From NCBI GenBank assembly GCA_964441575.1, contig CAYTXW010000002.1:1-34890 (forward strand): a stretch of 34,890 bases of DNA. Reading direction: 5' to 3'. The notes under the pieces are model-generated. The model saw only the letters and a list, made by a program, of their open reading frames with translations, was not told the DNA's origin and made no database searches. Source of the DNA: an uncultured Oscillospiraceae bacterium. Lineage in GTDB: Bacteria; Bacillota; Clostridia; Oscillospirales; Oscillospiraceae. A program made the position numbers and the translations under genes. Shown here piece after piece: positions 15,757 to 34,890 of this stretch. The stretch's first letter is position 1, and each line of letters begins with the position of its first letter.

Positions 15757-16676
15757 GCTGTAACACCTCCGAAGGGTTTCCTGCGGGTCCACTTGGAAAT
15801 GTAGGGCGTCAGGATATTCATAAAGAGGATGGCGAAGGATACGCCTTCGGCGTAGTTGCCCCACTGACGGATCAACACGGTCAAAAGTCCCGCACCGAAG
15901 CCAAAGATGACCCGGCCCCACATGGTAGAGGGAGTGGTGACATAATCTGTTGCCATGAAGATGGCGCCCAGCAGCAGGCCGCCGGAGAGAATCTGGCAAA
16001 GGGCATAATCAAGGGAGCCGCCCAGAGGCCAGGACAGGAGGAACACGGTTCCTACAAATACAACAGGCGTGTGCCAGGTGATAACGCCGCGAACCAGCAG
16101 ATAGACGAAGCCCAGCAGCAGGGCCAGGCCGCAGACCTCACCGATACAGCCGCCCTTCCACCCCAGAAATAGGGCCAGCTTAGAGGGCAGTGCATCCATC
16201 TGTCCGTTTGCCATCAGCGCCAGAGGCGTTGCCGTGGATACGGCGTCGGGGAACTGCCAGGCTGTCATGGTCTTGGAGAAGGACAGGAACAGCACAATTC
16301 TGCCCACAATGGCGGGGTTGGCGAAGTTCCGGCCCAGACCGCCGAAGAGCTGCTTGACCACCAGAATGGCGATGATGCTGCCAAGGGCTGCCTGCCACAG
16401 GGGAATTGTCACCGGCAGATTATAGGCCAGCAGCACGCCGGTTACAACAGCGGACCAGTCGCCGATGGTAACAGGCTTTTTACAGCCTTTTTCAAAGAGA
16501 TATTCGGTGAGAACCGCTGCTGCCACAGACACAAAGGTCACAAGCAGCGCCCGGACGCCGAAGATCACCACGGAGGCGATTAGGGCGGGGACCAGGGCAA
16601 TGACCACATCCCGCATCAACGTAGCGGTGTCGGTTTTGCTGTGGATGTGGGGCGAGGTGGATACAATCAGGCTCAT
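15753..16676 (-). CDS. rnfD: Rnf complex subunit D
   Basis: 307-aa polytopic protein. SPHIH N-terminal motif. FMN-attachment-like DAVSTATPLA. Confidence 0.9.
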   Translation of the reverse strand: MSLIVSTSPHIHSKTDTATLMRDVVIALVPALIASVVIFGVRALLVTFVSVAAAVLTEYLFEKGCKKPVTIGDWSAVVTGVLLAYNLPVTIPLWQAALGSIIAILVVKQLFGGLGRNFANPAIVGRIVLFLSFSKTMTAWQFPDAVSTATPLALMANGQMDALPSKLALFLGWKGGCIGEVCGLALLLGFVYLLVRGVITWHTPVVFVGTVFLLSWPLGGSLDYALCQILSGGLLLGAIFMATDYVTTPSTMWGRVIFGFGAGLLTVLIRQWGNYAEGVSFAILFMNILTPYISKWTRRKPFGGVTA

Positions 16677-18004
16677 AGCTTTGCCGCCTCCTGTTCCTTC
16701 TTAGCTTTGAGATAGGCCGCAACCTGGGCCTTTGCAAGCTTGTTGGTCTGAACCAGAGGCCGATGGGCCGGACAGATATAGCTGCAGCAGCCGCATTCCA
16801 TGCACAGATTGACCTTCAATGCCGCCAGTGTGGAGACGTCGCCTTTTTCAAAAGCGGTCTCAATCTCTGTGGGCATAAGCTTCAGGGGGCAGTGGGCAAT
16901 GCAGCGGCCGCACTTGATGCAGGCCGTCGGCTTGGGCAGTCCGGCATCTGCTTCGGCAAAGGCCAGAACGGCGTTGGTGTTCTTCAGCACCGGCACATCC
17001 AGGTTGGGGACGGCAATGCCCATCATGGGGCCGCCGTAGAGGACCTTTTTCGGCTCACTGGAGAAGCCGCCGCAGAATTCAAACACATCCCGCAGCGAGG
17101 TCCCGATGGGCGCCACCACATTCATTGGGTTTTTCACAGCGCTGCCGTCCACCGTGATGCACTTGCGCACCAGGGGCAGGCCGGATTTGATGTACCGGGC
17201 GATGGAGGCCAGGGTGGTGCAGTTAATGACGATGGCACCGGCGTCCAGGGGCAGCTTACCCTCGGGAACCACACGGCCAATTGTATGATAAATCAGCACC
17301 TTTTCACCGCCTTGGGGGTACATGGCGGGTAGAGAGGCCACTTCCATGCCTGTCTCGGCCTTGACCAGCTCCTGAAATTTCTGAATGCATTGGGGTTTAT
17401 TGTCCTCGATGGCAAAGATGATGCGCCTTGCGCCGATGTATTTTTGCAGCAACCGCGCCCCCTCCAGCATCAGCTTGGACTGATCCAGCATGGTGCGGGT
17501 ATCGGAAGTGATGTATGGTTCGCACTCCGCGCCGTTGACGATGACGGCTTCGACCTGACTTAAGTTCTTTACCGTCAGCTTGACGGCGGTGGGGAAGCCC
17601 GCGCCGCCCAGACCGACAATGCCGCTGTCAGTCAGTGCCTGCAAAAATTCCGTTTGGTTGTTGATTACGGGCGGTTCCAGTCCCTCATACCGCTCCAGCA
17701 GACCATCGGATTCAATGACGATGGCCGGTACATGCCTGCCGTTGGAGAGCATGACATCGTCAATCTTTTTCACCTTGCCTGAGATTGACGCATGTACGGG
17801 GGAGGATACGAATCCGCCCGCCTCCGCAATTCTCTGTCCCAGCTTGACATGGTCGCCGACTTTTACCAAAGGCTTGGCCGGCGCGCCAATGTGCATGGAC
17901 ATGGGAATCGAGACCACGGAAGGACAGTCCATCTTGACCGATGGCATATCCGCCGTGTTCTTTCGGTGTGGCACATGAACGCCTTGGAGTTTTCTCAGTG
18001 CCAT
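16673..18004 (-). CDS. rnfC: Rnf complex subunit C
   Basis: Trimmed to MALRKLQGVHVPHRKNT... (ATG 18004, AGGAGA RBS). GLGGAGFPT nucleotide motif. Two 4Fe-4S motifs CIKCGRCIAHCP and CMECGCCSYICP. Confidence 0.9.
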   Translation of the reverse strand: MALRKLQGVHVPHRKNTADMPSVKMDCPSVVSIPMSMHIGAPAKPLVKVGDHVKLGQRIAEAGGFVSSPVHASISGKVKKIDDVMLSNGRHVPAIVIESDGLLERYEGLEPPVINNQTEFLQALTDSGIVGLGGAGFPTAVKLTVKNLSQVEAVIVNGAECEPYITSDTRTMLDQSKLMLEGARLLQKYIGARRIIFAIEDNKPQCIQKFQELVKAETGMEVASLPAMYPQGGEKVLIYHTIGRVVPEGKLPLDAGAIVINCTTLASIARYIKSGLPLVRKCITVDGSAVKNPMNVVAPIGTSLRDVFEFCGGFSSEPKKVLYGGPMMGIAVPNLDVPVLKNTNAVLAFAEADAGLPKPTACIKCGRCIAHCPLKLMPTEIETAFEKGDVSTLAALKVNLCMECGCCSYICPAHRPLVQTNKLAKAQVAAYLKAKKEQEAAKL

Positions 18005-18033
18005 GACTTCATCTCCTGTTCTCTTATAATTCA

Positions 18034-18537
18034 TTACTTGGGGAAAATCTGATTTATCTGACGCAGCGTTAGCTGAGCGGCCAGACCAGTGAACGCACCG
18101 GTTACAATGGCCGACAAAATTAGCGCTGGGGCATACCAAAAAATGGCCATGCTGTTCATGACCACGCTGGCCACCAGCAGCTGACCCAAATTGTGGGCGG
18201 CGGCGGACAATACGCTCAGCACCCAGAGCTGCCTCGCCGGGATGCGGCGATGGAGTGCCAGCAGAACCAAAAAAGACAGCAACCCGCCGCTGAGAGAATA
18301 ACCCATGGCGGAGATCTGCCCGGTGACAAAGCTGCCCAGCACCACGCGGACCAACAGCACAGCCAACGCGGCCTTGGCATCCAGCGCATACAGAGCAAAC
18401 AGGGTAAAAATATTAGCAAGCCCCAGCTTGATACCGGGAACCGGCGTCAGTGGCGGAAGCTGCGCCTCCAGGACAAAGACGCACAGGGCAGCGGCAGTCA
18501 GCGCAGCCAAAAGGGTCAGTCGTTTTGTTTTACTCAT
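18034..18537 (-). CDS. Gx transporter family membrane protein (heptaprenyl-diphosphate-synthase-component-I-like fold)
   Basis: Trimmed to MSKTKRLTLLAALTAAALCV... (ATG 18537). About 5 TM helices. FVLEAQLPPL..PGIKLGLANIFTL signature. 4-nt overlap with the upstream gene. Confidence 0.7.
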   Translation of the reverse strand: MSKTKRLTLLAALTAAALCVFVLEAQLPPLTPVPGIKLGLANIFTLFALYALDAKAALAVLLVRVVLGSFVTGQISAMGYSLSGGLLSFLVLLALHRRIPARQLWVLSVLSAAAHNLGQLLVASVVMNSMAIFWYAPALILSAIVTGAFTGLAAQLTLRQINQIFPK

Positions 18538-18975: not shown

Positions 18976-19965
18976 CTACCGCGTCACAATCTGATATGCG
19001 CTGTCACAGGTAAGCTTGTCTTGCAGCCCCTCTGTCACAAAGATATGCCCATCATCCGCAATCAGAACCGCTTCAAAATCATAGACAGCGTCCCGCCAAA
19101 ATTGGCAGGCGTCCTCCAGACCCATGACAAACAGAGCGGTGGAGAGACCGTCGGCCAGAGTGTCATCCTTCGAAACAATGGTGACGGAAGAAAGACCGCT
19201 TTCCGCACTATAGCCGGTGCGGGGGTCCAGAATGTGATGCCAGCGATGTCCATTCTCTTCAAAGTACCGGTTGTAGCCGCCGGAAGTCACCACTGCGCAG
19301 TCTGTCACAGAGAGGGTAGCCAAATAATCGGCGGGAGAGGCTGGATCTGCAACGCCGATGTTCCAGACGCTGCCGTCTGGCTTTGCGCCGATTACGCGCA
19401 CATTGCCGCCCAGGGAGAGGCAGGCAGAGGTGACACCCGCGTCCCGCAGGACCTGTGCGGCGCATCCTGCCGCATAGCCCTTGCCAATGCCGCCTAGGTC
19501 GATGCCCATGCCCTCCAGCGCAAAGACGACAACGTCACCGTCCAGCGTGACGGCGCGATAATCCACCAGGGACATGGCCGCGTCCAGCGCCTCCTGCGGC
19601 GGCACGGCGGGCGCGTCCCCATACCAGCCCCACAGAGCAGCCACCGGCTGGATGGTGCAGTCATAGGCACCGCCGGTGGCGCGGGAAATATCCAGAGCTT
19701 GCTGAAGCAGTGCGGCAGTTTCCGCTGAGAGCGTGTAACTGCCGGTCTGGTTCAGCTGGGCAATCTCGCTGTCCGCGCCCTCAATGGAAAGCTGCCGATC
19801 CAGCCGCAGAATTTCTGCCTTTGCCTGCTCCAGCGCTTCCTGAGGCCCGTAGGCTTGCAGCCAAATCACAGTATCCATGGCGAAAAACTCTGCCTCCTGT
19901 GCCTGAGACCCGGCGCATCCGCCCAGGCAGAACAGTAGTATCAGCAGGATTCCCAGCTTTTTCAC
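18976..19965 (-). CDS. apbE: FAD:protein FMN transferase ApbE (lipoprotein)
   Basis: Lipobox LFCLGGC. ApbE motifs FAMDT, DLGGIGKGYAAG and HHILDPRTG. I chose GTG 19965 (GAAAGG 9 nt upstream); the track start is TTG 19983. Confidence 0.85.
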   Translation of the reverse strand: MKKLGILLILLFCLGGCAGSQAQEAEFFAMDTVIWLQAYGPQEALEQAKAEILRLDRQLSIEGADSEIAQLNQTGSYTLSAETAALLQQALDISRATGGAYDCTIQPVAALWGWYGDAPAVPPQEALDAAMSLVDYRAVTLDGDVVVFALEGMGIDLGGIGKGYAAGCAAQVLRDAGVTSACLSLGGNVRVIGAKPDGSVWNIGVADPASPADYLATLSVTDCAVVTSGGYNRYFEENGHRWHHILDPRTGYSAESGLSSVTIVSKDDTLADGLSTALFVMGLEDACQFWRDAVYDFEAVLIADDGHIFVTEGLQDKLTCDSAYQIVTR

Positions 19966-20016
19966 ATGACCCGGCCTTTCCAATCGGATTTTTAAAAAAT
20001 TTGAAAAACTACTTTT

Positions 20017-29969: not shown

Positions 29970-30018
29970 AGCATCAAAATAAGACCGTTTTCCGGCGAGA
30001 TAAGAAAGGATGATTTTT

Positions 30019-30366
30019 ATGCATTTGGATCATGAAGGGACTCATGAGCATCCCCATATCCAGGATGACGCGACCCATACCCACGATCATGATCATGACC
30101 ACGCCCATTCCAATGACTGCGCGGCGGACAGCTGTGCCGCCTGCGGCGGCTGCGGGGACCATACGCCGAGGGAAGAGCTGACGGCGCTCATGAAGTATAT
30201 GGTCAACCACAACACCGCCCACGCCAACGAACTGGCGGAGCTGGCCAAGAAGCTGGGCGATTTGGGCGACAAGACCGCCTATGAGCAGGTCATGCTGGCT
30301 GTCAGCGACTTTGAAAAGGGCAATCTGCGGCTTCGCACCATTCTGGCGGCGATGCAGGATCATTGA
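30019..30366 (+). CDS. His/Asp/Cys-rich metal-binding protein with helical C-terminal domain (possible Ni chaperone/storage, CooJ-like role)
   Basis: MHLDHEGTHEHPHIQDDATHTHDHDHDHAHSNDCAADSCAACGGCGDH... followed by the predicted helical region ELTALMKYMVNHNTAHANELAELAKKLGDLGDK. I chose ATG 30019 (AAAGGA 8 nt upstream); the track start is 30010. Confidence 0.55.
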   Translation: MHLDHEGTHEHPHIQDDATHTHDHDHDHAHSNDCAADSCAACGGCGDHTPREELTALMKYMVNHNTAHANELAELAKKLGDLGDKTAYEQVMLAVSDFEKGNLRLRTILAAMQDH

Positions 30367-30478: not shown

Positions 30479-30673
30479 ATGTGCCTTTCAACTGTTTATA
30501 ATGGCTCCAAGGAGCCGGAGAATATTGTGATGTCCAATGTCCAGCGCATTGATGTGCAGGAGGGACAGGTGCTTTTGACCGACCTGATGGAGCGGGAGAT
30601 GGTGGTTGTGGGCCAGCTGGTCATGGTGGACCTGGTGGGCGGCATGGCCATCGTCCGGGAGACTAAGGCGTGA
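30479..30673 (+). CDS. cooT: CooT-family nickel-binding protein
   Basis: 64 aa starting Met-Cys (MCLSTVY...), with the small beta-barrel pattern ...V.RIDV.EG.VLLTDL......G.LV.VDL..G.I of the CooT/PF10133 family. AAGGAG RBS. cooC lies nearby. Confidence 0.7.
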   Translation: MCLSTVYNGSKEPENIVMSNVQRIDVQEGQVLLTDLMEREMVVVGQLVMVDLVGGMAIVRETKA

Positions 30674-30897
30674 AACAGTACGAAATGGTCCGGGAGATCG
30701 AGAACCAGTGCGCGAACAACCAGATGCGCGATGTGTTCTTTGAGGAAGTGGAGACCGACGATCCGGCGGCCTATGTTCGCAGCATTCTAAAGGGGAAGTC
30801 CGTGGAGCTGACTGTGGATGTCCCCGGCCCCGGACGGTTCAACATATATGCCAACACTGCCGGTATCACGCAGAAGTTTCTCTTCACGGAAATTTGA
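30670..30897 (+). CDS. Hypothetical 75-aa protein, translationally coupled to cooT
   Basis: GTG start overlaps the cooT stop (GTGA). MKQYEMVREIENQCANNQMRDVFFEEVETDDPAAYVRSILKGKS... No family recognised. Confidence 0.5.
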   Translation: MKQYEMVREIENQCANNQMRDVFFEEVETDDPAAYVRSILKGKSVELTVDVPGPGRFNIYANTAGITQKFLFTEI

Positions 30898-31039: not shown

Positions 31040-31807
31040 ATGCCGACACATACCATCGCAGTGGCCGGAAAGGGCGGCGTGGGCAAGACCACGACCTGCG
31101 GCATGATAATCGATTATCTGTGCAAGCAGAAAAAAGGTCCGGTTTTGGTTGTGGACGCCGACGCCAATTCCAATCTGAATGAGGTTCTTGGCGTCGAGGT
31201 CGAGATTACCTTGGGTGATATCCGCGAGGAAATGGCCCAGGCGGAGCTGAAGGGTACTATGCCCAAGAATATGACCAAGGCCGAATATGCCGATATGAAG
31301 TTCTCCTCCGCGCTGGTGGAGGAGGACGACTTTGACATGCTGGTCATGGGCCGGACCCAGGGCAAGGGCTGCTACTGCTTTGTCAACGGTGTCCTGAAGG
31401 CCCAGGTGGACAAGTACGCGGGGAATTACCGCTACATGGTCATCGACAACGAGGCGGGCCTGGAGCATATCAGCCGGGGAACGCTGCCGCATGTGGACAC
31501 CATGCTGCTGATCTCCGACTGCTCCCGCCGCGGGATTCAGGCCGTGGCCCGCATTGCAGAGATGATTAAGGATCTGGATCTGAAGCCCACCAATTTACAA
31601 CTCATTGTCAACCGTGCGCCGGGGGGGGAATTGAATCCCGGCGTTATGGAAGAAATTCAAAAGCATGACCTCCCGCTGTTGGGCGTCCTGCCCCAGGATG
31701 AGCTTGTGTTCCAGTATGACTGCGACGGCAAGCCCAGCTCCAAGGTGCCGGACAACACACCAGTCAAGGCAGCCCTGCATGAGATCATGCGCAAGCTCAA
31801 TTTGTAA
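31040..31807 (+). CDS. cooC: CooC/AcsF-type Ni-insertion ATPase (CODH/ACS maturation factor)
   Basis: 255 aa. Deviant Walker A AGKGGVGKTT. CxC metal motif GKGCYCF. MinD/ParA-like fold. Confidence 0.9.
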   Translation: MPTHTIAVAGKGGVGKTTTCGMIIDYLCKQKKGPVLVVDADANSNLNEVLGVEVEITLGDIREEMAQAELKGTMPKNMTKAEYADMKFSSALVEEDDFDMLVMGRTQGKGCYCFVNGVLKAQVDKYAGNYRYMVIDNEAGLEHISRGTLPHVDTMLLISDCSRRGIQAVARIAEMIKDLDLKPTNLQLIVNRAPGGELNPGVMEEIQKHDLPLLGVLPQDELVFQYDCDGKPSSKVPDNTPVKAALHEIMRKLNL

Positions 31808-31834: not shown

Positions 31835-32779
31835 ATGTCTTTCGTACCCAAAAAGCAGGCGTTCAATGCCAAGATCAACGCCGTCACCCTCGGCACCGGT
31901 GACAAGGCGACGGTCCTTGGCGGACAGAATGTCCTGCCGTTCTACACCTTCGATGCGCCCATCGAAAACAAGCCCAAGATCGGCGTGGAGATTTCCGATG
32001 AGGGGATGGAAATCTGCACCACTGAGGGCATGAAGGCTTTCTATGCGGGCTGTGTCACGGTGGCTGATATGGCCAAACGGGCCGAGTCCATGCCCGGCGC
32101 ATCCTTCATCTGCCTCCACCTGGAAGGCGCCGATCCAAACGGACGGAATAAGTCTGTGGAGGAGTGCGTCGAGCTGGCAAAGGTCGTTTCCGAAACTACG
32201 GATATGCCCCTGGTCATCATGGGCTGCAAGAACGTAGACAAGGACGCGGAGCTATTCAGCAAGGTGGCAGAAGCCCTGGCAGGCAAGAACATTCTGGTTC
32301 TGTCCGCCCGTGAAGAAAACTACAAGACTGTCGGCGCTTCCGCCGGCCTGGCCTACAATCAGAAGGTCGGCGCGGAATCCGCTGTGGACATCAACCTGGC
32401 CAAGCAGCTGAACACCGTTATGACCCAGCTGGGCGTACCCGCCGGCTCCATCGTCATGAACGCCGGTTCCGCCGCCGCCGGTTACGGCTATGAGTATGTT
32501 GCCTCCACCCTGGACCGCATCAAGGCGGCCGCGCTGCAGCAGGGAGACGCCCAGCTGCAAATGCCCATTATGACCCCCGTGTCCCCCGACACCTGGGGCG
32601 TGAAGGAAGCGGTAATGTCAGAAGCGGATATGCCCGAATGGGGAAGCCAGGAAGAGCGCGGCGTGGAAATGGAAATCACCACCGCGGCGGCCTGCCTGGC
32701 CGGCGGCTCCGATGCTGTTATTATGCGGCATCCCGCAGCCATCGCGGCGATCTCCACCATGATCGACGCGCTGATTTAA
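31835..32779 (+). CDS. acsD: Corrinoid iron-sulfur protein small subunit (CFeSP delta, AcsD)
   Basis: 314 aa, colinear with Moorella AcsD (VLGG..LPF, HLEGADPNG...SVEECV, PLVIMGC, ENYK, DINLAKQLN, GYGYEY, IMRHP). Confidence 0.9.
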   Translation: MSFVPKKQAFNAKINAVTLGTGDKATVLGGQNVLPFYTFDAPIENKPKIGVEISDEGMEICTTEGMKAFYAGCVTVADMAKRAESMPGASFICLHLEGADPNGRNKSVEECVELAKVVSETTDMPLVIMGCKNVDKDAELFSKVAEALAGKNILVLSAREENYKTVGASAGLAYNQKVGAESAVDINLAKQLNTVMTQLGVPAGSIVMNAGSAAAGYGYEYVASTLDRIKAAALQQGDAQLQMPIMTPVSPDTWGVKEAVMSEADMPEWGSQEERGVEMEITTAAACLAGGSDAVIMRHPAAIAAISTMIDALI

Positions 32780-32798: not shown

Positions 32799-34890
32799 AT
32801 GGCAGTCAAAGGTCTGGATATTTTCAAGCTTTCCCCCAAAACCAACTGTAAGCAGTGCGGCAGCCCCACCTGTATGGCTTTCTGTATGAAGGTTGCCCAG
32901 GGCGCCGTGCCTATCGATAAGTGTCCCCACATGTCCGAGGAGGCCAAGGCCCTGCTGAGCGAGGCCACCGCGCCCCCTATGAAGACCATTGCTGTGGGCA
33001 ACGACATCAAGCTCGGAGGCGAGACCGTCCTGTTCCGCCACGAGAAGACGCTGGTTTCCCGCAACCGTTTCGCCGTACCTGTCTGTACCTGCATGGAACC
33101 GGAAGCTGTCAACGCTAAGCTGGCCGATGTGGCCAAGGTGGACTATGAGCGCATTGGCGAGCGCGAGTATGTGGAGTTTGTTCTGGTCCACGACGGGAAG
33201 GGTGATGCAGCCCGCGCCGTGGAGCTGTGCAAGCAGGCTGTGGATGCCGGCCGCGCCGTCATCATCGACACCGAAAATTTAGAGGTTGCCAAGGCCGCTG
33301 TGGATGCCGTCAAGGACTCCAAGCCCATTCTGAACGGCGCGAACAAGGACAACTTCGCGGAAATGAGCGCCATCGCAACCGCCGCCGGCGCCGCACTGGG
33401 CGTCAAGGGTGCCTCCATTGAGGAACTGCATGACACTGTCACCGCTCTGGAGAAGGCCGGCAACAAGAACTTGGTTCTGGATGTTACCGCGCCCACTGCC
33501 AAGGAGACCTTGGCCAACGCCGTCATGGTCCGCCGCGCCGCCTTGAAGGACGGAGACCGCACCTTCGGCTATCCCTCCATCGTCAACGTGGCCAAGCTGG
33601 CCAAGGGTGATCTGCATCTGCAAACAGCCTACGCCGCCCTGTTTACTCTGAAATATGGCTCCATCATTGTCATGGAGAATATGACCTACGCCGAGGCTCT
33701 GCCGCTGTACGGCTTGCGCCAGAATATTTATACGGACCCCCAGAAGCCCATGAAGGTCGCCCCCGGCATTTACCCCATGAACGGCGCTACCCCCGACGAT
33801 CCCTGCATGATGACCGTGGACTTTGCCCTGACCTACTTCCTGGTTTCCGGCGAAATCGAACGCTCCAAAATCCCTGTCAACCTGCTGATTACCGATGCCT
33901 CCGGTATGTCCGTTTTGACCGCTTGGGCTGCGGGTAAATTCTCCTCATCCACGGTCAAGAAGTTCTTTGACGAGTATGAGATCTCCAGCAAGATCAACAG
34001 CCGCACACTGGTTATTCCCGGCAAGGTTGCTGTCATGAAGGGAGAGATCCAGGACAAGCTGCCGGAGTGGAACGTGGTCGTTGGTACCCGAGAGGCCGTT
34101 GAGATCGTCAAGTTCCTGAAGGACGGCGAGCATGAGAAGGCTGCTGCCGCTGTGGCTGCCGCCAAGGCCCCCGTCACCGAGAAGAAGGAAGAGGTTAAGG
34201 CTGACGCGCCGCTGGACTTTGCCAAGATTGCCGCGTCCATCCCTGCCATCGAGGTCAAGGATGTCTTTGTCAACGACAAGAAGGTCACATACAAGTCCCG
34301 CAACGTGGAGAGCAACAAGTTCGTCACCATCGGCGAACGTATCCACTGCATCAGCCCTGTCATCCGCGAGGCCATGAACACCATGAACCCCGAGCCGATT
34401 CTGAAGCGAGCCGCCGAGCAGATCGCCGCTGGCGCTACCTATCTGGACGTCAACATCGGCCCCGCCGAGTCCAACGGCCCTGAGCTGATGACTTGGGCGG
34501 TCAAGCTGCTGCAGGAGAACTTCAATAATGTGCCGCTGGCGCTGGATACGGCCAACAAAAAGGCCATTGAAGCCGGTATCGCTGTGTATAACCGCGCCAA
34601 CGGCAAACCCATTATCAATTCCGCCGATGCCGGTTCTCGTATCAGCAACATTGATCTGGCCGCTGCCAACGACGCCATTGTTATCGCTCTCTGCTCTGCC
34701 GACGGCATTGCCAAAGACAATGAGGAGCGCATGAACCATTGCCACCATATGCTGGACCGCGGCATGGCCCTGGGCATGGAAGCTACGGACCTGTGGTTTG
34801 ACCCCCTGTTCCTGGTGGTCAAGGGTATGCAGGACAAGCAGATGGACGTGCTGAACGCCATCAAGATGTTCGCCGACGAGGGCCTGAAGT
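32799..34890 (+). CDS. acsC: CFeSP large subunit (AcsC-like) fused in-frame to a methyl-H4folate:corrinoid methyltransferase (AcsE-like) domain; 3'-truncated by the window edge
   Basis: Not in the supplied track. Hand translation from ATG 32799 (AAGGAGGG at 32781-32788) gives 697 sense codons to the window edge. Cys17/20/25/42 cluster motif. Ala/Lys/Glu linker at 34128-34211. AcsE-like motifs from 34320 (IGERI, LDVNIGPA, LALDTANKKAIEAG, LWFDPLFL). Confidence 0.85.
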   Translation, partial: MAVKGLDIFKLSPKTNCKQCGSPTCMAFCMKVAQGAVPIDKCPHMSEEAKALLSEATAPPMKTIAVGNDIKLGGETVLFRHEKTLVSRNRFAVPVCTCMEPEAVNAKLADVAKVDYERIGEREYVEFVLVHDGKGDAARAVELCKQAVDAGRAVIIDTENLEVAKAAVDAVKDSKPILNGANKDNFAEMSAIATAAGAALGVKGASIEELHDTVTALEKAGNKNLVLDVTAPTAKETLANAVMVRRAALKDGDRTFGYPSIVNVAKLAKGDLHLQTAYAALFTLKYGSIIVMENMTYAEALPLYGLRQNIYTDPQKPMKVAPGIYPMNGATPDDPCMMTVDFALTYFLVSGEIERSKIPVNLLITDASGMSVLTAWAAGKFSSSTVKKFFDEYEISSKINSRTLVIPGKVAVMKGEIQDKLPEWNVVVGTREAVEIVKFLKDGEHEKAAAAVAAAKAPVTEKKEEVKADAPLDFAKIAASIPAIEVKDVFVNDKKVTYKSRNVESNKFVTIGERIHCISPVIREAMNTMNPEPILKRAAEQIAAGATYLDVNIGPAESNGPELMTWAVKLLQENFNNVPLALDTANKKAIEAGIAVYNRANGKPIINSADAGSRISNIDLAAANDAIVIALCSADGIAKDNEERMNHCHHMLDRGMALGMEATDLWFDPLFLVVKGMQDKQMDVLNAIKMFADEGLK

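Follow-up and report, generated by a model that had tools for sequence, protein, structure and literature searches.

The 34,890-nucleotide stretch of DNA analyzed here (the window; contig CAYTXW010000002.1 of assembly GCA_964441575.1, from an uncultured Oscillospiraceae bacterium) ends within a gene in which acsC and acsE, encoding the large subunit of the corrinoid iron-sulfur protein (CFeSP) and the methyltransferase (MeTr) of the Wood-Ljungdahl pathway (WLP), occupy a single reading frame. We hold with high confidence that this is a genuine acsC::acsE fusion, encoding one chain of ~765 residues that would form, together with the CFeSP small subunit AcsD, a WLP module in which CFeSP and MeTr are permanently assembled. 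This reading is carried by the open frame itself, the identities of both domains, the conservation of the fusion, its operon context, and its two origins. The gene is a real and conserved fusion of two known, consecutive components whose chemistry is expected to be canonical, and it is apparently undescribed. A literature search returned no description of an AcsC-AcsE fusion, with passing mention in non-open papers possible, and none was found among solved structures; the original prediction, made from the sequence alone, had likewise known of no characterized example.

The fused gene lies on the forward strand (32799..34890), with its 3′ end beyond the window. Translation from the ATG at 32799 yields 697 stop-free codons up to the window edge at 34890, and comparison with 765-aa orthologues indicates that ~68 codons are missing past that edge. 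The ATG has a ribosome-binding site, GAAGGAGGG, 7 to 15 nt 5′ of it; acsD, the gene before, stops with TAA at 32777-32779. The original prediction had proposed this 697-codon frame and had described all overlapping open reading frames (ORFs) between 32.9 and 34.9 kb as short or antisense. Translation and the ORF list bear out both statements, and every motif and coordinate quoted there proved exact when rechecked.

The first 443 residues had been called AcsC-like, with candidate iron-sulfur ligands at Cys17, Cys20, Cys25, and Cys42, and profile searches, solved chains, and predicted fold all agree with this assignment. A [4Fe-4S] domain occupies residues 13 to 44 (32835..32930, + strand; Pfam FeS, 45 bits), followed by the AcsC triosephosphate isomerase (TIM) barrel and C-terminal corrinoid (B12)-binding domain at residues 68 to 443 (33000..34127, + strand), which are supported by a Pfam CdhD match (residues 68 to 439, 255 bits) as well as by NCBIfam, PDB, and fold comparisons. 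The NCBIfam equivalog for AcsC/gamma, PRK04165, matches residues 1 to 443 over profile positions 1 to 446 of 450, with a score of 505 bits against a cutoff of 306. The Cys17-x2-Cys20-x4-Cys25 motif and Cys42 align with solved AcsC chains, and these four cysteines are at least 90% conserved, nearly invariant, in the orthologue alignment. The corrinoid-domain motif SVLTAWAAGK, at residues 371 to 380, is also conserved. Residues 1 to 442 of a full-length orthologue, P0001, align with the complete AcsC chains 9fzy_F, 2h9a_A, and 4djd_C; the AcsC half matches residues 1 to 446 of 9fzy_F by sequence and resembles that chain in fold, with a template modeling (TM) score of 0.85 in a Foldseek comparison of the AlphaFold2 model. 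The AcsC half is predicted to bind corrinoid and to cycle between Co(I) and CH3-Co(III).

The AcsE half is a pterin-binding TIM barrel at residues 506 to 697 (34314..34890, + strand), cut by the window edge. It matches the NCBIfam model NF040758 for the methyltransferase of CO dehydrogenase/acetyl-CoA synthase (CODH/ACS) at residues 506 to 697, covering profile positions 2 to 193 of 261 with 338 bits; this score is below the cutoff of 370 only because the edge truncates the domain. Pfam Pterin_bind matches residues 526 to 691 (56 bits), residues 505 to 764 of P0001 align with the complete MeTr chains 2yci, 1f6y, and 2e7f, and the modeled MeTr half superposes on 2yci with a TM score of 0.70. 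These profile, chain, and fold matches uphold the earlier assignment of a pterin-binding MeTr domain starting at nt 34320, although only the domain itself stood as proposed and not its first residue, since homology to AcsE extends from residue 505/506 rather than 508. The motif FVTIGERIHC runs from nt 34320, and YLDVNIGPAE, LALDTAN, IINSAD, and LWFDPLF are all present in the window. Within these, LDTAN, INSAD, and FDPL are conserved and align with LDSTN, INSTS, and IDPL of 2yci, while the GLSN pterin-site motif falls past the window edge and is present and conserved in the orthologues (as in P0001). The corresponding pterin-site residues of the Moorella MeTr are, we assume, Asp75, Asn96, Asp160, and Asn199. 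In place of the stand-alone AcsE of ~262 aa that forms a homodimer, the enzyme here is the C-terminal domain of a ~765-aa polypeptide.

Given where AcsE homology begins, the linker that joins AcsC (residues 1 to 443) to AcsE (residues 506 to 697) is 62 residues long. Its first part, residues 444 to 471 (34128..34211, + strand), is rich in Ala, Lys, Glu, and Pro, as seen in its composition, the alignment, and the structural model. The second part, residues 472 to 505 (34212..34313, + strand), is semiconserved in the alignment, with the pattern P-L-D/S-F...P-x-I-x-V...V-x-Y-K, and is absent from unfused AcsE proteins, which begin with M-x-KF[VM][TI]IGERIHC. Residues 443 to 505 have no match among PDB chains, and no solved chain covers both halves; the 36-residue segment of unknown nature that the original prediction had set apart here (residues 472 to 507, nt 34212-34319) has no Pfam, NCBIfam, or PDB match. 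Among orthologues, the linker varies from 51 to 62 residues (mode, 57), with all insertions and deletions in frame. Its ratio of nonsynonymous to synonymous polymorphism (pN/pS) is 0.64, compared with 0.16 to 0.35 in the domains, and its GC content at third codon positions equals that of the flanking domains. Together, the in-frame length changes, pN/pS, and third-position composition indicate translated sequence under constraint that is relaxed but real.

Linker residue numbering is identical in P0001 and the window. The AlphaFold2 model (mean pLDDT, 79; pTM, 0.55) places an Ala-rich helix at residues 444 to 455 that extends the last AcsC helix, followed by a low-confidence stretch at ~456 to 473 (pLDDT below 50 at 460 to 467), a small helix at 474 to 480 and a beta-hairpin at ~489 to 496 (pLDDT 72 to 83), a second low-confidence stretch at 501 to 504, and the MeTr barrel from residue 508 onward. 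The low-complexity segment seen in the original prediction is therefore present, while its comparison to a uniform swinging arm of the E2 type did not hold, as the model shows a helix, ~18 low-confidence residues, and then a helix plus hairpin. In this model, the linker consists of ~30 flexible residues and a small element with a possible role in docking. A 5-residue insertion at ~488 to 492 (window 34260-34274) is common to the window and two related loci, L001 and L086. Their sequence at this point is DVFVNDKKV, against D[ML]--GV in other species, most of which have a Met that is lost with the insertion.

To gauge conservation, we scanned a set of genomes with a single member for each GTDB species; counts rest on the 80 best loci. 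An intact fused ORF of 751 to 768 aa was found in 78 of these 80 species-level Oscillospirales loci, and the remaining two are cut by contig ends. A word-indexed search recovered more than 120 protein clusters of 754 to 765 aa at 81 to 93% identity, all with the three Pfam domains. Carriers include Faecousia, Avoscillospira, CAG-110, CAG-170, Acutalibacteraceae, and others, among them the cultured Faecousia intestinalis CLA-AA-H192 and Pseudoflavonifractor sp. MSJ-30. No second acsE or acsC was present in the flanks within 10 kb of the fusion in 88 loci. Proteins of at least 700 aa carrying both domains, which the original prediction had proposed to look for, are numerous in databases, both in Oscillospirales and in Thermodesulfobacterium. 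Public data thus contain many copies of the fusion, which is uncharacterized rather than rare.

Thermodesulfobacterium represents a second fusion family. When 1.84 billion representatives clustered at 50% identity were searched exhaustively with HMMER, only two full-length fused representatives emerged, one for the Oscillospirales family (P0129) and one that is 35% identical to it (P0141). The family of P0141 comprises ~27 clusters (P0279-P0304) of 776 to 823 aa from Thermodesulfobacterium, with K/E-rich or S/T/P-rich linkers of ~45 to 95 residues and the gene order folD, CODH, DUF5981, metF, acsD, acsB, acsC::acsE. Its closest relatives are unfused AcsC proteins of Caldimicrobium, at 71% identity. 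The low identity between the two families, their different gene orders and linkers, and these unfused kin point to an independent fusion event, so that, judging from sequence comparison, the AcsC::AcsE fusion arose at least twice. The P0141 copy itself (L084:5100-5252) is only 719 aa, compared with 776 to 823 aa in its family, and its stop lies 17 bp from a contig end; its short end is probably an assembly-end artifact and not a real truncation. A further AcsC homologue, P0262 (589 aa), has a seemingly duplicated C-terminal corrinoid-binding domain, in which a ...DGLSV...GKL...KHRK..IP... module repeats.

For the Oscillospirales family, the nearest unfused AcsC (P0132, in L085) is 64% identical to that of the window. 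In L085, acsC ends with TAA and is followed by a 214-bp spacer and then by an acsE gene (80% identical) starting MAKFVTIGERIHC, which is the exact point where AcsE homology begins in the fusion. This arrangement of adjacent genes and the matching AcsE start indicate that two neighboring genes became fused when the stop codon of acsC was lost. The intergenic spacer would have been replaced by a linker of ~57 to 62 codons; the two are very different in composition, AT-rich in the L085 spacer and GC-rich in the fusion linker.

The fused gene lies at the 3′ end of a set of genes related to CODH/ACS. Directly 5′ of it is acsD (31835..32779, + strand; NCBIfam WLP_AcsD and Pfam CdhD), whose product matches WLP_AcsD over residues 6 to 313 with 484.7 bits against a cutoff of 430. 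A gene for a P-loop ATPase of the cooC type, a nickel-insertion accessory protein (31040..31807, + strand; Pfam CbiA, AAA_31, and ParA), precedes acsD here and in every relative examined; its identity as cooC is putative, drawn from context and family and not from an equivalog match. Further upstream is cooT, encoding a nickel chaperone for CO dehydrogenase (30479..30673, + strand; Pfam CooT, 62.6 bits, E = 4.5e-17), which has the same place in relatives. L001 and L086, which share 88% DNA identity with the window, are collinear with it from cooT to the window edge and carry acsB ~280 bp past the stop of the fusion, so that acsB is expected ~280 bp beyond the window edge; in L086, acsB is followed by acsV/RACo, DUF3786, and fhs. 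Across relatives, AcsB (993 bits) is encoded downstream of the fusion in 55 of 83 loci and AcsV (914 bits) in 49 of 83. Given these operon partners and the acsB, acsV, and fhs genes of relatives, the acsC::acsE locus is a Wood-Ljungdahl module. The original prediction had noted correctly that neither acsA nor acsB is visible upstream, but its view that the context was open does not stand in light of the cooT-cooC-acsD-acsC::acsE operon, which relatives continue with acsB and acsV. In two other relatives, L082 and L083, a gap of 700 to 860 bp follows (L082:12292-13008 and L083:7648-8512) and then a branched-chain-type ABC transporter, with no acsB or acsV; in these, either acsB is located elsewhere (e.g., beside cooS) or the cluster is rearranged.

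Three other explanations bear on the fused frame. Fused ORFs at window edges are a frequent type of artifact, and the deposited annotation of the near-identical L086 (L086:4498-6792; GCA_051887055.1, JBJEYU010000199.1) contains only a 263-aa AcsE, called from an internal GTG, leaving the AcsC half, ~1.5 kb, with no gene call. A stop codon or frameshift might accordingly have been lost in sequencing or assembly, the genes being separate in reality. However, the DNA of L086 encodes an intact 765-aa frame, so its short call reflects annotation and not sequence; 78 independent species-level assemblies and the more than 120 clusters, drawn from many samples, all preserve the open frame; and linker insertions and deletions are always in frame, with pN/pS below 1. 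We rejected a missed stop or frameshift on the strength of the 78 orthologous frames and the codon-level analysis, and regard an artifact of this kind as hardly conceivable. It is also very improbable, in our estimation, that the fused protein acts outside acetyl-CoA synthesis, in another corrinoid methyl-transfer route of the demethylase or methylation type that uses methyl-tetrahydrofolate. Such a role would accord with the absence of acsA and acsB from the window, the lack of acsB adjoining the fusion in L082 and L083, and weak HgcA-type matches over the corrinoid domain. Against it, both halves score best on equivalog models specific to CODH/ACS; cooT, cooC, and acsD are in the operon, with acsB, acsV, and fhs next in most relatives; WLP genes are transcribed by Faecousia and CAG-170 in the gut; and “Candidatus Faecousia” upregulates the WLP under inhibition of methanogenesis.

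The third explanation accepts the gene fusion but holds that the proteins are separate, with AcsE released by cleavage of the linker or made from an internal start. The low-confidence, presumably disordered stretch of the linker would be reachable by proteases, and for two relatives (P0121 and P0122) gene callers placed the start at an internal GTG or ATG. No boundary start codon is conserved, however. In the window there is no ATG at residues 444 to 525, and the only GTG near the boundary, at residue 503, is not preceded by a Shine-Dalgarno sequence. A Met near the boundary that is present in most relatives, and is the basis of the P0121 start, is missing from the window lineage. With neither start codon nor Shine-Dalgarno sequence kept at the AcsE boundary, internal initiation is not conserved, and an internal AcsE start was rejected on these grounds. 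In addition, linker length is kept, residues 472 to 505 are patterned and moderately structured in the model, unlike a discarded spacer, and the same fusion evolved in a second lineage. We consider separate proteins unlikely, though less so than a role outside acetyl-CoA synthesis. Several points nonetheless weigh against a single-chain CFeSP/MeTr module: a single chain is deduced from genes, and cleavage within the disordered linker is possible; the model has a pTM of only 0.55 and provides no interdomain geometry; a neutral fusion with no kinetic benefit would account equally well for the relaxed linker constraint; acsB in the source genome is predicted from relatives at 88% DNA identity; and L082 and L083, at 84% protein identity, have the ABC transporter downstream in its place.

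If the fused gene is translated as a single chain and assembles with AcsD, as we infer, then the two proteins would constitute a permanently assembled CFeSP/MeTr unit. The MeTr barrel would bind methyl-tetrahydrofolate (CH3-H4folate), and the mobile B12 domain, tethered at both ends, would swing onto the tethered MeTr, accept the methyl group to give CH3-Co(III), and then swing to the A-cluster of AcsB to hand the methyl group over, with RACo/AcsV reactivating oxidized cobalt. The tether would fix the stoichiometry at 1:1 and keep the local concentration of MeTr high around the corrinoid; should MeTr remain dimeric, the assembly would be (AcsC::AcsE)2(AcsD)2, the same composition as in the 4DJD cocrystal. 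In published structures, the B12 domain rotates toward ACS in a motion reminiscent of that with MeTr. Whether the tether brings any kinetic benefit is a further question. It is possible, but on balance doubtful, that it is adaptive, with a constitutive (AcsC::AcsE)2(AcsD)2 in which the B12 domain shuttles intramolecularly between MeTr and ACS, a twice-evolved convergence on a MetH-like design. Were this so, the mini-element at residues 472 to 505 would act as a novel piece for docking or as a hinge, placing MeTr relative to the B12 domain, the fusion would be a stable natural form of the transient CFeSP/MeTr complex that suits structural work, and it would be a determinant of methyl-branch kinetics in dominant uncultured acetogens of the gut and rumen (Faecousia and CAG-170). 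The two independent origins suggest that the arrangement is workable and perhaps advantageous.

Compared with the characterized bacterial CFeSP (AcsC/AcsD) and MeTr of Moorella thermoacetica, Carboxydothermus hydrogenoformans, and Clostridium autoethanogenum (4DJD, 2YCL, 2YCI, and 9FZY), the fusion has the same domains in the same order, with conserved Fe-S cysteines, TIM barrel, B12 domain, and pterin-site motifs, a separate AcsD, and the same operon partners, cooC, acsB, and acsV. It differs in being one polypeptide, with a linker of 51 to 62 residues that has no counterpart in solved chains, whereas MeTr in the characterized systems is a separate homodimer that docks transiently. Papers from 2024 to 2026 describe MeTr as an additional, separate enzyme, in line with what the original prediction had stated of these systems. 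The fusion of Thermodesulfobacterium has the same three-domain architecture within a complete WLP cluster, at 35% identity to the Oscillospiraceae protein and in the order acsD-acsB-acsC::acsE. Archaeal acetyl-CoA decarbonylase/synthase gamma/delta (CdhE/CdhD) is similar in transferring a methyl group from pterin to corrinoid with no separately encoded free enzyme. In that system, however, the archaeal corrinoid iron-sulfur protein itself catalyzes the transfer, with tetrahydromethanopterin or tetrahydrosarcinapterin and no AcsE domain, while the fusion carries a bacterial AcsE domain.

A likeness to MetH is also apparent, in that a pterin-binding TIM barrel for demethylation of CH3-H4folate and a B12 domain are found on one chain with flexible linkers, and the AcsE half matches the MetH folate domain (TIGR02082, 59 bits, cutoff 1011), including among PDB chains. 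The order differs, with folate before B12 in MetH and B12 before folate in the fusion. MetH holds B12 His-on in a capped Rossmann domain; in CFeSP, of another type, the cofactor is base-off and His-off. The fusion also has neither the homocysteine nor the S-adenosylmethionine (AdoMet) domain of MetH, and global superposition on MetH is poor (TM scores of 0.18 to 0.35). We rejected membership in the MetH family, as only the folate domain matches and the MetH order of homocysteine, folate, cap/B12 (DxHxxG), and AdoMet domains is not found.

The fusion has consequences for how the pathway is recognized in genomes, since annotation pipelines lose one half of it or the other in gene-by-gene WLP surveys. 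Copies are named “dihydropteroate synthase” (e.g., MBQ9968597.1) or “subunit gamma,” and the fusion of Thermodesulfobacterium is named “Methionine synthase I” in one source. In a 2024 human gut survey based on eggNOG-mapper, the acsE KEGG orthologue was undetected in 78% of Oscillospirales genomes otherwise carrying the WLP (PMC11338639). This “missing acsE” is probably explained by an acsE hidden in a gene scored as acsC. Oscillospirales transcripts for CODH in the human gut are dominated by Faecousia and CAG-170 (PMC11338639), among acetogens it is chiefly “Candidatus Faecousia” that is stimulated by inhibition of methanogenesis in the rumen, and another study requires all five Acs proteins for a pathway call (PMC12827605). 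Recognizing the fusion corrects pathway calls in these important gut and rumen acetogens. For enzymology, a tethered CFeSP/MeTr offers a natural stabilized version of a transient complex. To our knowledge, that complex has so far been captured only by cocrystallization.

Several other genes of the window and of related clusters deserve mention. At the head of the cluster, 5′ of cooT, is a gene for a His/Asp-rich protein of 118 aa (HEHPHIQDDATHTHDHDHDHAHS...; 30010..30366, + strand), which has no Pfam or NCBIfam match itself and whose place is taken in L001 and L086 by PF26551 (DUF8180). Its product may bind metal, perhaps nickel, as an accessory protein in CODH/ACS maturation, a suggestion we make with little confidence. 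A conserved ORF of 75 aa (30670..30897, + strand), taken from the ORF list and with no family match, overlaps the cooT stop, and a gene of 70 to 75 aa occupies the same place in L001, L082, L083, and L086. DUF3786 follows acsV in the Oscillospiraceae cluster (L086:11706-12335), and DUF5981 precedes metF in that of Thermodesulfobacterium (L087:2889-3566); both are conserved WLP-linked genes. Finally, the window encodes an RnfC-type subunit (16673-18139, − strand) and an ApbE flavin transferase (18976-19983, − strand), which indicate an Rnf complex ~13 kb upstream of the acs genes and fit with energy conservation driven by ferredoxin, as is typical of Rnf-type acetogens.

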